From contig JAAFKI010000112.1 of the NCBI GenBank assembly GCA_021399345.1, forward strand, positions 96,001 to 160,000: DNA of 64,000 bases, in the 5' to 3' direction. The translations under genes were made by a program, and so were the position numbers. Source of the DNA: Candidatus Heimdallarchaeota archaeon (GTDB lineage: Archaea; Asgardarchaeota; Heimdallarchaeia; Heimdallarchaeales; Heimdallarchaeaceae). Positions within the stretch are counted from its first letter, which is position 1. Every line of letters begins with the position of its first letter. The notes beneath the pieces are model-generated. The model made no database searches, was not told the DNA's origin, and saw only the letters and a program-made list of their open reading frames with translations. Positions 12,236 through 17,714 of this stretch are shown piece by piece.

Positions 12236-12486
12236 TCGTGTATCTTTTTAATCAAACTAAGTATCATTATGACGAATGTTTTCGCTTCAAATTTTTTCAT
12301 AGTTTTAATTTTTGAACAAGATAGAAATTCTATTTTTCTTATCTTCTTCAACTCTAAGCTACTTAATTTTTCTAGCTTTAAAAGACTTTGTTATTGCAAC
12401 TTTAAGAGCTAAACCTTCTAATACTGAAATTCATCAGAATGGAAAAATTTAGGAGAAAGAAAGAGGTCACTACATAATACTTATAA

Positions 12487-12510
12487 TTTGTACAGTATTC
12501 CAAGTACAAA
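12487..12510. promoter_or_regulatory. Palindrome TTTGTAC-N10-GTACAAA directly after the TTATAA box of paralog 2
   Basis: ttataa(12481)tttgtac agtattccaa gtacaaa; ATG at 12525. Confidence 0.5.
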
Positions 12511-12524
12511 AAGTTGAATGAAGA

Positions 12525-12886
12525 ATGCCAGATATACCAAATAAAGAAAAACAAGAGATCAGAATATTGGCAGAGGATTTCAGTTGTTTAATTGCAACCC
12601 TTTCATTCAAAAAGGCTCTTATATCTTCTATGAAGTTTTCAAGTCTCTCTATAGTAGATCAGCTAGATGGAGATATTGTTTGATTTGTGGTAATATAGAT
12701 TTACCTACGGATTTTATCCATAAGGATCCAAACTACCCCCAAGTATCTTGTCACAAAATCCAGTCACTAATACCAACTTCTTGGATGAAACTAAGAGATT
12801 TCTTCATTAAAAGTAATTATAAGAAACTCCTCAAAGCAATGGGGGTTCAAAATGTAGAAAAAAAGACAACCAGTGCCTCTAATTAA
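12525..12886 (+). pseudogene. CxxC family paralog 2, split by a 1-nt deletion near 12621 (pseudogene or sequencing error)
   Basis: Frame from ATG 12525 gives MPDIPNKEKQEIRILAEDFSCLIATLSFKKAL, which aligns without gaps to the paralog N-termini. The family core IFYEVFKSLYSRSARWRYCLICG...TSWMKLRDFF is in the 12584 frame. Confidence 0.75.
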
Positions 12887-12913
12887 ATAAAATGTAAGAA
12901 TAATCCTTTAGAT

Positions 12914-13390
12914 TTAGGATGTCTCCCCAATTTTTATTGCTTCAGGCAATTTGTTTTCTTCTGCAACTGCAAATATTTCGCGTATTATTGGTATCTGATC
13001 CGGTTTGTCTGTTACTCCTGCATTTTCTAGAGCTCTTATATGCTTCTTTGACATGAAGAAGTCTCTCAGTTTATACCATGATGTAGTAATTAAAACAGGA
13101 AAACGATTCGTACCTAAAGTGCATTCATGGATTCTCTCTTTTAATTCAGATTTCTTCTCTTCTGAATACTTATCACCACCAAGCTCTCCATCATCAATCA
13201 TCAACTCGGTGGGTTCAATAATCCCACACTTAAGACAGAATTTCCACCTGGCAGATCTAATATACAGTGCTTCAAAAGTTTCTGAATAAACTAATAGCCC
13301 TTCATTGAAGGGAGATACCCATAATCCCATTGCATAGCGTCTTGCAATTGATTTTATAAATGATTTTTCAGCATTTGATATTTTTGGCAT
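12914..13390 (-). CDS. CxxC...HxC family paralog 3 (158 aa)
   Basis: MPKISNAEK start with GGGGTG RBS; RSARWKFCLKCG...IHEC...PVLITTSWYKLRDFF. Confidence 0.85.
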   Translation of the reverse strand: MPKISNAEKSFIKSIARRYAMGLWVSPFNEGLLVYSETFEALYIRSARWKFCLKCGIIEPTELMIDDGELGGDKYSEEKKSELKERIHECTLGTNRFPVLITTSWYKLRDFFMSKKHIRALENAGVTDKPDQIPIIREIFAVAEENKLPEAIKIGETS

Positions 13391-13601
13391 ACTACACCCC
13401 TTGCCATTATGATTGAATCCATACCGACATATTAAGGTATCTCTATAACCTCTGCATAGATATCCGAAGATATAATAGTGAATCTGAAAGCACTCTTCCA
13501 AAATAGGTAAATATGAGGTATATATTATGTAAAAAATAATTGATTCTCGTTTCAAGATTCAAAAAAAAAAATGAATTAAGGACTAATATTCAACATGATA
13601 C

Positions 13602-13751
13602 TTAAAATGACTGAGATAAAGCAGATAAGGAGAGCAATCCAATTACTATTAAAACACATATGGAGATAGCATAAACTAGAAACATACCAAAATAGGATCT
13701 TGCTTTTTCCATTCTAGCTTTTCTTTTTATCTGATTAATATTTGACATCAT
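13602..13751 (-). CDS. 49-aa basic + single-TM microprotein (operon A, last gene)
   Basis: MMSNINQIKRKARMEKARSYFGMFLVYAISICVLIVIGLLSLSALSQSF; GAGGTGA RBS; same length as, and homologous to, 15563..15712. Confidence 0.8.
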   Translation of the reverse strand: MMSNINQIKRKARMEKARSYFGMFLVYAISICVLIVIGLLSLSALSQSF

Positions 13752-13769
13752 TTTTATTTCACCTCTTTT

Positions 13770-13910
13770 GTGATCAGCTTCTTTGTACTCCACCAGAAGA
13801 GGATGGGTACTTTCCTGACCGTGCACAACTGTTTGTGGTGAAGTTGACTAATCTTGCCATGCGTCCTCTACCTAGTTATGGGGAGATGTAGGAAAGAGAA
13901 GCATGGGTGT
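13770..13910 (-). ncRNA. Putative structured 5' leader or small RNA upstream of the 49-aa gene
   Basis: Minus-strand stems ccatgc/gcatgg + ttctc/gagga + ccta/tagg, caact/agttg, ggtcag/ctgatc + gtac/gtac; G-U pairs favour minus strand; starts about 20 nt after TATATAAA (13926-13933). Confidence 0.45.
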
Positions 13911-13925
13911 TTTTTTTTCTTCGGG

Positions 13926-13934
13926 TTTATATAT
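13926..13934. promoter_or_regulatory. TATA box, possibly bidirectional, between the two structured regions
   Basis: TTTATATAT, flanked on both sides by structured GC-rich DNA starting 20-30 nt away. Confidence 0.5.
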
Positions 13935-13949
13935 GAAAGTACACATAGA

Positions 13950-16205: not shown

Positions 16206-16336
16206 TCTTTTTCACCTCCTAGAATTTTTCTTTTTTCTCCTGAATCTTTTTCAAGTAATTGTAAAAAATTAATGAACCCTTCATGGGCTCGGATTTGATC
16301 GTTCAGAGAGAGAGTTGTTTTAAACAGTGTATTCAC
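16202..16336 (-). CDS. Possible 44-aa microprotein (operon B)
   Basis: GTG start after GGTGA; MNTLFKTTLSLNDQIRAHEGFINFLQLLEKDSGEKRKILGGEKE; stop overlaps the next ATG (ATGA) and the ORF fills the gap. Confidence 0.5.
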   Translation of the reverse strand: MNTLFKTTLSLNDQIRAHEGFINFLQLLEKDSGEKRKILGGEKE

Positions 16337-16345
16337 CTTCACCAA

Positions 16346-16606
16346 TTAATAGTAAAGCGACCCAAACAGGAGCAATTTTTGAGCAAGTGCTTTGTCCTTA
16401 GCCTTTCTCACTTTGTTCTCTATGCTTTCCCTGGAAATCTCTTTATCAGGTCGGGACTTTTTGTTATCGCGATCAGATAATCCTTCCATAAGTTGCTTGA
16501 TGAAAGAATAATAGAGATCCTCATCAATAAATTCAAAATCATACAAAACTTTCATATTGTCAATTACTATTTGGCGCACTGTTTCTACTTGAACTTTGGA
16601 TGCCAT
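16346..16606 (-). CDS. 86-aa hypothetical protein (operon B)
   Basis: GAGGTGA RBS; acidic/aromatic N-half, basic helical C-half. Confidence 0.75.
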   Translation of the reverse strand: MASKVQVETVRQIVIDNMKVLYDFEFIDEDLYYSFIKQLMEGLSDRDNKKSRPDKEISRESIENKVRKAKDKALAQKLLLFGSLYY

Positions 16607-16643
16607 TCATTTCACCTCTATTTGAAAATGGTAAGACTCTAGC

Positions 16644-16790
16644 TTACCCGTAAATCAGGTATTTCCTGATTGGAAATCTAGAACGAGCTTTTGCTCTTCT
16701 AGTGCGACGAGCTCTTTTGAGCTTATTCAACTCCTTGCGGAGTGCCTTAATCTTTCGGTCCAAAATTATACTTACTTCTTGTTTATACAT
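16644..16790 (-). CDS. 48-aa highly basic coiled-coil microprotein (operon B), not in the ORF track
   Basis: MYKQEVSIILDRKIKALRKELNKLKRARRTRRAKARSRFPIRKYLIYG; GAGGTG RBS; same length and DNA-level similarity to 14590..14736. Confidence 0.85.
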   Translation of the reverse strand: MYKQEVSIILDRKIKALRKELNKLKRARRTRRAKARSRFPIRKYLIYG

Positions 16791-16801
16791 TTCTTTACAC
16801 C

Positions 16802-16990
16802 TCAAATGTTTGCAAATCTCCTCAGGTTCAGGTTAGAGTAGAAGCTAATGGTTGCAGTCAGGTATTGCTCATAGATATCCAAGTTCTTGTCTGAATATCG
16901 GTTGGATAGAGTTTTCATGAGTTTATTGAGATCCTCGTAAAGTCTTCGAACCTCGGGATCCAGCAGTTTTTTTATTTCGTTTTTGTTCAT
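16802..16990 (-). CDS. 62-aa helical microprotein (operon B, first gene), distant paralog of the 48-aa proteins
   Basis: MNKNEIKKLLDPEVRRLYEDLNKL aligns with MNHDEVSNLLDQKVRGLQKELKQL; AGGTG RBS. Confidence 0.75.
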   Translation of the reverse strand: MNKNEIKKLLDPEVRRLYEDLNKLMKTLSNRYSDKNLDIYEQYLTATISFYSNLNLRRFANI

Positions 16991-17016
16991 TTTTTTACAC
17001 CTTAGGATTGGTTCTA

Positions 17017-17271
17017 TTACAGCATTGTGCAGTAACCTATTTAAGCATCGTTGTGCAGTAATAAATTACCGCATTTTGCAGTAATAAAAGAAATATTATT
17101 AAAAACGACAAAATGACCATATAGGCGATATTTATGCTTATGAACTCGTATAACCCCTTCAATAAATGCCATAAATAGGGGCAAATATTTCCGCTTAAGT
17201 GATTTTATTTGCAGTAATAATATGACTTTGGGAAATTATTACCTTGAGATATACATATATATATTACTGCA
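17017..17271. promoter_or_regulatory. Divergent promoter region with five TGCAGTAA(TA) type-B operator elements
   Basis: TTACaGCA-ttg-TGCAGTAA 17017-17035 next to TATA 17038-17044; TGCAGTAATA at 17054; TTACcGCA-ttt-TGCAGTAA from 17066; TGCAGTAATA at 17210; inverted TATTACTGCA 17262-17271 just after the TATA run of paralog 5. Confidence 0.8.
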
Positions 17272-17299
17272 AACAATAATATAGATAGGAGGTAAAATC

Positions 17300-17698
17300 T
17301 TGCCTGTAATTAAAAATGTTGAAAAAACACAAATCAAATCCAGAGCCCGTAGATATGTGCAAGATTTAGCTGATGCTCCCTTAAGTACCGGTTTAGAATT
17401 ATATAGTGAAACTATCTCAAAGCTCCATGATCGTTCTTCCCGATTGCGAATTTGTTTGAAGTGTGGAGCTATTGATAAAAAAGAGAGTCTTACTAACAGC
17501 AACCATCATTGTGCATCTGGCATTGATAAACTCCCTGTTATCATTCTTACAAACTGGGTCATTTTGAAAAATTTCTTTCTCACTGACGAATACACTAAAG
17601 CGTTGCAAAAGCTTGGCGTTGAACCAATTCTGAAGGAGTCTAGTCCAAGCAAAAATACAAAACAAAAGGAAGAATCACTTGTTGAAAAAACAAAGTAA
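17300..17698 (+). CDS. CxxC...HxC family paralog 5, divergent from operon B
   Basis: GGAGGT RBS, TTG start; RSSRLRICLKCG...NHHC...PVIILTNWVILKNFF. Confidence 0.85.
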   Translation: MPVIKNVEKTQIKSRARRYVQDLADAPLSTGLELYSETISKLHDRSSRLRICLKCGAIDKKESLTNSNHHCASGIDKLPVIILTNWVILKNFFLTDEYTKALQKLGVEPILKESSPSKNTKQKEESLVEKTK

Positions 17699-17714
17699 AG
17701 AAAACAATTTCTTC

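Follow-up and report, generated by a model that had tools for sequence, protein, structure and literature searches.

A co-inherited locus of CxxC/HxC proteins, promoter dyads and basic or membrane microproteins in a genus of Candidatus Heimdallarchaeota

Introduction

Do very small genes that recur beside an unnamed protein family form one working module and, if so, what could it do? The question is raised by a 64,000-nucleotide (nt) stretch of Candidatus Heimdallarchaeota DNA (assembly GCA_021399345.1, contig JAAFKI010000112.1, positions 96,001–160,000; hereafter, the window), in which two tandem microprotein operons, A and B, lie among genes of a CxxC..HxC family (hereafter, Z). A preliminary description made from the letters alone had proposed a tightly repressed, inducible system with a large structured RNA. 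Our analysis supports a module of basic and membrane microproteins that is under selection, is inherited together, adjoins the CxxC/HxC family and has dedicated operators; repression, induction and all functions proposed for it are what we infer from its parts. The locus holds genes under selection, dyads associated with Z, coding-sequence hairpins, a native RNA and a recently inserted, IS607-derived 355-nt core.

The reading that we tentatively favour, at somewhat less than an even chance, is that of repressor-gated stress operons, in which an Arg-rich RNA-binding microprotein and a small RNA would form a second control step and membrane peptides the output. Unlikely, although of some weight, is a wholly new system, in which a family of zinc transcription factors with a new DNA-binding fold would gate an Arg-rich microprotein whose targets are hairpins in its mRNA and a dedicated small RNA, and these together would turn on membrane microproteins able to change cell state (e.g., dormancy or membrane remodelling); if true, it would be a regulatory system in an Asgard lineage near eukaryotes. 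Gene regulation in Asgard archaea is almost unstudied, and most of these small genes, which belong to a system limited to one genus, escape gene callers.

Results

A conserved chromosomal locus of selected microprotein genes

The open reading frames (ORFs) lie where the preliminary description had placed them (Table 1), on contig C41 of a 3.27-Mb genome with 33% GC (labelled G000). Carriers of the locus are genomes labelled Candidatus Heimdallarchaeota, AB_125 among them, and we know of no cultured member of their genus. On one side the locus is flanked by an FAD-oxidase/ETF cluster with glutaredoxin and on the other by a DEAD-box helicase, a setting that recurs in most genomes of the genus. 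A Z gene lies immediately upstream of an operon headed by B1, B2 or A1 in 18 of the 24 genus genomes, mostly between the ETF/FAD-oxidase genes and the helicase, and the co-occurrence of CxxC genes with the microproteins is thus found well beyond the genome in which it was noticed. This genuine, chromosomal locus is passed on throughout the AB_125 genus and is not a provirus.

Purifying selection was detected in eight of nine small ORFs (B1, B2, B3, B5, B6, A1, A2 and A3), with ratios of nonsynonymous to synonymous substitution rates (dN/dS, pairwise across the genus) of 0.15–0.47 and dN below dS in nearly all pairs, which are not independent. The selection that had been claimed for the small ORFs is therefore borne out by values well under 1. 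A GGTG-type ribosome-binding site (RBS) precedes every small ORF except B4, so the strong RBSs described earlier hold for all but that one. B4, the possible extra ORF of the 44-residue class, is an open frame here; it has no RBS at its TTG start, is frameshifted in G008 and is not kept in G012, G022 and the C-type operons, and is probably no gene.

The gene-by-gene paralogy that had been proposed between the operons holds for two pairs, B2/A1 (48/48 residues, 46% identity) and B6/A3 (49/49 residues, 41% identity). Operon A has no counterparts of B1, B3 and B4, showing that the duplication was partial, and B1 is itself a distant paralog of B2/A1. A2 resembles only the N-terminal part of B5, which, as described before, combines one hydrophobic helix with 13-residue repeats; it is an A2-like membrane anchor lengthened by repeats whose length and number differ among relatives. 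The exact paired lengths also stand as counts, but because the B6/A3 alignment needs a 3-residue gap, equality is in that case partly coincidence. A fold search with B3 returned generic helical matches only, which does not make its fold a novel one.

The protein families and the RNA of this locus are named by no library that we searched and are undescribed in the literature searched, where we found no paper on it. Family scans of all parts (Pfam, PHROGs, NCBIfam, PADLOC) gave only sub-threshold coiled-coil or membrane matches, an Atlas feature search gave unnamed clusters only, and of 1.84 billion proteins searched with a profile, 24 matched (23 apparent family members and one chance repeat protein).

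Table 1 Positions of the features of the locus within the 64,000-nt window
Feature	Position	Strand	Remarks
Z4, 132 aa, CxxC..HxC zinc-type, divergent from operon B	17300..17698	+	putative repressor of operon B and itself; dN/dS 0.23
Operon-B-type half-site immediately behind Z4 TATA box	17264..17271	+
Operon B upstream 21-bp dyad	17065..17085
Operon B TATA box (17037–17044) and adjoining 21-bp dyad (17016–17036)	17016..17044	-	among the genome's best three matches
B1, 62 aa, helical	16802..16990	-	distant paralog of B2/A1 (hhalign E 5.5e-6, 27 columns); dN/dS 0.24
B2, 48 aa, coiled coil, Arg-rich	16644..16790	-	hairpins 16730–16743, 16710–16723 and, over the stop codon, 16641–16668
B3, 86 aa, three-helix soluble	16346..16606	-	no family or clear fold match; dN/dS 0.15
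B4, open frame	16202..16345	-	probably no gene
B5, 138 aa	15789..16205	-	A2-like basic N-terminus, one hydrophobic helix, 13-residue repeats; dN/dS 0.47
B6, 49 aa, basic	15563..15712	-	hydrophobic C-terminus; dN/dS 0.26
Z3, 146 aa, zinc-type, upstream of operon A	15018..15458	-	own dyad 15469–15489; dN/dS 0.18
Operon A promoter	14764..14856	-	dyads 14836–14856 and 14764–14784, TATA box 14785–14793
A1, 48 aa, B2 paralog	14590..14736	-	hairpins 14676–14689, 14656–14669 and, over the stop codon, 14584–14615, then U-run; dN/dS 0.35
A2, 47 aa, basic membrane peptide	14400..14543	-	dN/dS 0.45
Native three-hairpin RNA, ~127 nt	14181..14307	-	no Rfam match; z -4.4
Protein-free IS607/TnpB mini-element, 355 nt, outside the native system	13823..14177	+	insertion, shared ends; target motif 13818–13822 before it; internal TATA box 13926–13935; loop 14103–14109 pairs with 3' end 14171–14177
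A3, 49 aa, B6 paralog	13602..13751	-	dN/dS 0.42
Z2, 158 aa, zinc-type	12914..13390	-	own 22-bp dyad 13409–13430; dN/dS 0.08
Z1, zinc-type gene, frameshifted here, intact in relatives	12525..12886	+	own 22-bp dyad 12488–12509

The Z family and its promoter dyads

Each operon lies between members of the CxxC/HxC family, as had been reported. The five paralogs counted earlier are all present in the window, but in Z1 the frame is broken by a 1-nt deletion near 12608 not seen in relatives, and the genome holds eight Z genes, all on contig C41. All 24 genomes of the genus and both genomes of the sister genus have Z, compared to none of 57 other genomes of the class. Its Cys52, Cys55, His69 and Cys71 are invariant (17 alignment rows), and the Z genes show dN/dS of 0.08–0.23 versus 0.09 for an ETF control. 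The predicted structure, confident for residues 1–110, is a small helical domain with an inserted Cys3His site; the invariant Cys-Cys-His-Cys site would hold zinc, either in a structural role or as a redox/metal sensor. No Pfam or NCBIfam match was found, helix-turn-helix families (ArsR, Lrp, TrmB, MarR) included. Fold searches (PDB, wide PDB, Atlas, viral) returned nothing beyond generic helical matches (best Z-score 5.0 to an unrelated helical bundle; Atlas TM <0.4), which does not in itself establish a novel fold.

The operator palindromes noticed earlier right after the TATA boxes of both operons are present and belong to a wider pattern. Most Z genes with a promoter of their own, in most Z clades, have a dyad of 21 or 22 bp right after the TATA box, even where they lie far from microprotein operons, and for this reason Z is probably an autoregulated repressor, a reading drawn from sequence. 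A dyad in this position at a regulator's own promoter is the layout of an autoregulated, promoter-occluding repressor, and archaeal repressors of that kind are known among the ArsR, Lrp and TrmB types. The Z locus resembles these in placing a dyad between TATA box and start site, before its own gene as well as a neighbouring or divergent operon, and differs from them in that no helix-turn-helix family or fold match was found for Z, which has a helical domain with an inserted Cys3His site. The dyads also follow the Z phylogeny: spacing is 22 bp in the well-supported Z2 clade and 21 bp in the Z3 clade, and in one Z4 subclade (support 100/98) the own half-site and the operon B dyads have changed together, while sister Z4 genes in G022 and G015 retain the common dyad type. 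Four 'ATGT22' labels on Z4 rows were chance matches within coding sequence and were disregarded. We consider it probable that Z binds the 21–22-bp dyad and represses its own gene, and that operons B and A are repressed in addition by Z4 and Z3, respectively; the dyad, right after the TATA box, would cover the region where transcription starts.

Several observations weigh against this first control layer. The operator change in the Z4 subclade happened once, and relatives have traits in common. Matches are inflated because the dyad often begins within the AT-rich end of the TATA box. Eight genomes carry Z genes without any such microprotein operon. Finally, no match to a helix-turn-helix or other known DNA-binding fold was found for Z, and the case for DNA binding is therefore built from position and co-variation. 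If Z does bind the dyads, it would be a new family of transcription factors in which each paralog has operators of its own, and short DNA would suffice for testing this in vitro.

Outside the locus, four more Z paralogs on contig C41 (window 1633–2082, minus strand; C41 30747, 90134 and 91800) adjoin TPR and surface-type genes and not microprotein operons; three of these four have their own dyad.

Hairpins within the Arg-rich 48-residue gene

The coding sequence of B2/A1 contains two short hairpins and a third over the stop codon, followed by a U-run. Among 23 B2/A1 copies, 85% of cells are paired and nine of 18 pairs show two-sided change; the covariation score was reached by none of 500 shuffles, slid controls stood at 28–49%, and the hairpins were recovered de novo. 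When folding was compared to synonymous recodings under genome codon usage, 23 of 28 operon copies fell at or near the best 5%, a level reached by 3% of control windows and by none of the four distant paralogs. Behind the second hairpin, most operon copies encode the Arg-Arg pair as CGN-CGN, although CGN makes up 27% of Arg codons. Two cautions apply to this RNA layer: the covariation counts hang on few inherited changes and are inflated by relatedness, and the amino-acid sequence itself accounts for some of the pairing, the signal being weaker against uniform codon choice.

The hairpins may be bound by the peptide, read by the ribosome as an attenuator, or both. At close to even chances, B2/A1 would dimerise, bind RNA and control the downstream message through the hairpins and the 127-nt RNA described below. 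The heptad N-terminus would form the dimer and the basic tail would contact RNA; the first targets would be the hairpins of its own coding sequence and the 127-nt RNA; and binding would set read-through or stability of the downstream message, with the 127-nt RNA released as a small RNA. An Arg-rich peptide acting on hairpins of its own transcript, if confirmed, would be a rare case of protein-mediated attenuation or small-RNA control in archaea.

Alternatively, B2/A1 could be mainly a cis-acting leader peptide with little role in trans, the speed of the ribosome over tandem rare Arg codons and hairpins deciding termination at the stop-codon hairpin and U-run. Such a leader would suit the position of B2/A1, which is the first or second gene in three different repressor-controlled cassettes, as well as the hairpins and CGN-CGN pair inside its coding sequence and the hairpin and U-run at its stop. 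The heptad leucines and basic tail are, however, conserved as protein (dN/dS 0.35–0.47), a distant paralog retains the peptide pattern without the hairpins, and B1 precedes B2. We regard a mainly cis-acting leader as unlikely.

Among known systems, Arg-rich-motif antiterminators (lambda N/boxB) and leader-peptide attenuators offer a comparison, with the reservation that archaeal termination differs. A basic Arg-rich helix, short hairpins with A-rich loops in the same transcript and a hairpin with U-run downstream make an analogy to these; there is no sequence match, and here the hairpins lie within the coding sequence. The nearest working analogy for the microprotein/RNA layer is CcaF1-CcsR of Rhodobacter sphaeroides, in which a DUF1127 small protein is encoded with small RNAs processed from its own transcript (PMC8034643, PMC12218461), which it binds and matures (PMC8034643). 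The two would share a small Arg-rich protein upstream of a structured small RNA on one transcript, with protein-RNA feedback proposed in both. They differ in the archaeal promoters with dyads, the extra membrane peptides and the RNA outside every Rfam family found here, and DUF1127 (PF06568) had no match among 22 B2/A1 members or in the genome.

A native 127-nt RNA and the membrane peptides

The large structured RNA, which had been described as part of the system, turned out to be mostly a 355-nt plus-strand IS607/TnpB insertion missing in close relatives, leaving a native RNA of only 127 nt. The native RNA folds with z-scores of -2.3 to -4.7 in 18 copies, and covariance-model matches were obtained from 12 genomes of the genus and weakly from four C-type operons, always within these operons. 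Pairing of its long third hairpin is kept with different sequences in three subtypes. On the other side of the balance, its two core helices vary only one-sidedly (wobble), with no two-sided changes, both strands fold alike, and in five C-type operons the RNA homologue lies inside an open 105-codon frame with dN/dS of 0.29, where it is possibly a dual-function RNA. Rfam searches gave no match and supported none of the hammerhead, c-di-AMP, T-box and C/D-box readings that we had considered. A coding remnant was rejected for the A and B types, in which no reading frame is kept, as was a weak RNA-model match outside the genus (G033), which lies within coding sequence. The C-type 105-codon frame (L072–L076), located between B3 and a 51-aa membrane gene, is open in five of five genomes, and one of its start codons there is CTG.

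The native RNA precedes B6 in G007, G008, G012 and G024 and is deleted before B6 in G000. B6 is kept without it in G000, G018, G015 and G022; conversely, G022:C11 has the RNA but no A3, and in G030 the RNA is kept beside an A3 that has lost its start. This independent loss argues against an obligate toxin-silencing leader, and it bears on the proposal of a toxin, dormancy or abortive-defence cassette in which toxic membrane peptides would be silenced by a repressor and a structured RNA. Type I toxin-antitoxin loci under repressor control, such as LexA-tisB/istR and hok/sok, are the models for such a cassette, and the analogy lies in a repressed promoter, a structured RNA and a membrane peptide of ~50 residues. 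Indeed, the membrane peptides are cationic, single-helix proteins of 47–51 aa, double dyads occur at both promoters, and the structured RNA lies immediately upstream of A3/B6. However, RNA and peptide are separable in evolution, each operon encodes several peptides, an antisense gene was not identified, Pfam and PADLOC gave no toxin match, and the neighbourhood is a stable, housekeeping one. We therefore judge a toxin cassette improbable. As to the output of the stress operons that we favour, the single-pass basic membrane peptides (A2/B5, A3/B6) might modulate membrane transport or permeability under stress, a possibility that we hold with considerable doubt.

A third cassette and its regulator

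A third cassette was identified in six genomes (L173:3700–5560, L174, L175, L176, L177 and L178) and was not found in G000. In it, a B2-type peptide is joined by a basic 34-aa peptide and an MFS transporter of 428 aa and, in three of the six genomes, by an A2-type repeat peptide as well; in four, the cassette is located opposite an ArsR-like regulator and has a different dyad. More distantly, a 42-aa B2-like peptide (L139:1–631 [G000 C95], L180 and L181) heads a conserved operon that also encodes a 70-aa coiled coil, a 450-aa ArsR-domain protein and a 223-aa unknown protein. Together, the third cassette and the distant ArsR-linked operon show the peptides to be a portable cassette, linked with repressors and in one case with transport.

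The transporter raises the prospect of a gene cluster whose peptides act as secreted antimicrobials or signals, like bacteriocins or microhalocins, and whose MFS protein serves export or immunity. This MFS_1/MFS_3 protein is encoded between the Arg-rich peptide and the A2-type peptide, which has a variable number of 11-residue repeats, and the peptides are cationic with glycine-rich hydrophobic C-termini. Operons A and B, however, have no transporter, peptidase or modifying enzyme, the hydrophobic stretches are long enough to span the membrane, and no family match was found, making such a cluster quite improbable.

The ArsR-linked cassettes also bear on whether Z acts at the dyads at all. The dyads could be bound by an unlinked global regulator, with Z genes being co-regulated effectors (zinc or RNA binders); no DNA-binding fold was found for Z, and most Z clades have the same outer dyad bases. 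Against this, the dyad is not spread through the genome: loose matches number 82 genome-wide, below shuffled counts, the exact operator types match best at this locus, and a loose TATA-plus-dyad scan of the genome revealed no enrichment and no wider regulon. Spacing and half-site track Z clades, and the cassette that adjoins an ArsR-like regulator in place of Z carries another dyad. A global regulator is thus very improbable, and Z remains the candidate repressor.

A domesticated virus structural module or provirus remnant, suggested in the preliminary description and similar to virion proteins in the size of its small coat-like membrane and basic peptides, is hardly credible given that no Z relative was found in viral contigs, that there was no PHROG match under E 0.01, no viral fold match and no PADLOC match, that GC is host-like, that no flanking repeat and, upon ORF inspection and as first described, no integrase, replicase or nuclease gene lies in the interval, and that the chromosomal position is the same across species.

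A recent IS607-derived insertion

The GC-rich core between the native RNA and A3 is a recent, protein-free IS607 derivative, inserted antisense to operon A as a passenger. It is absent from relatives that are 97–98% identical around it (L001, L004, L006, L010 and L012), and public contigs skip exactly 355 nt at this position, leaving a precise empty site. This correction matters, since a mobile element accounts for most of the conspicuous large RNA. Elsewhere in the genome, the last 85 nt of the insertion are found at ten sites, four of which are the 3' ends of ~645-aa TnpB-like genes (83–93% identity to right ends on C4, C88, C89 and C129), one of them behind an IS607 transposase fragment. 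Left-end, promoter and target motifs are common to the mini-element and longer elements (left end and target: C88, C89 and C129). The C89 TnpA matches NF033518 at E 1.5e-19 (partial, below cut-off), and a 642-aa ORF matches TnpB/Cas12f models weakly.

Full-length copies with the same sharp ends occur at unrelated sites in genomes of two genera, some within genes, in both orientations relative to host genes; at least 12 copies from several genomes have GT at both junctions and unrelated flanks. The shared GT core behind a conserved five-base target and the lack of terminal inverted repeats are what IS607 recombination should leave: it works through a dinucleotide core and produces no inverted repeats (10.1101/2023.11.20.567912). 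Elements of the IS607 family have a serine-recombinase TnpA, TnpB and a right-end omega-RNA (10.1101/2023.11.20.567912). Likeness to them, which concerns only the 355-nt insertion, comprises the absence of terminal inverted repeats, the dinucleotide core at both junctions, the conserved upstream target motif, a loop that pairs with the 3' end and ends common to tnpA/tnpB copies in the genome. The mini-element differs in being protein-free, in having GT instead of GG as core and its own TATA box, and in a structured RNA of ~140 nt that matches no local tnpB 3' end (blastn). Its RNA has a conserved fold with some two-sided changes, and the 7-bp pairing of loop to 3' end, found in 12 of 12 copies, is nearly invariant. 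No group I intron match, of the kind that an IStron would carry at its left end, was found with Rfam in the window or in three other copies. The mini-element RNA may supply guide RNA in trans.

Some further properties of these elements were noted. The mini-element and its copies L042–L050 and L059–L063 have a TATA box of their own and encode a conserved, ~225-nt RNA with a 5' part unmatched to local tnpB sequence, and an internal segment around 14130 has complementarity to the left junction in most copies. The second full copy in G000 (C16:2736–3098; L061) interrupts a gene of the metallo-beta-lactamase fold in sense orientation. In the large (~645 aa) IS607-type TnpB proteins on C4, C88, C89 and C129 (L140:1046–2974), the position of the last RuvC aspartate, before the NAA motif, appears to be histidine.

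Neighbouring genes

The glutaredoxin gene next to Z4 (17715–17956, minus strand) is frameshifted by a 1-nt deletion relative to L006. As this is the second 1-nt deletion nearby, besides that in Z1, an assembly error is possible. Redox as the inducing signal is a guess only, prompted by the adjoining glutaredoxin and flavin oxidase. Between A3 and Z2, positions 13450–13560 form a variable slot, which is occupied by a 115-aa membrane gene in L006 and by a second glutaredoxin in L004.

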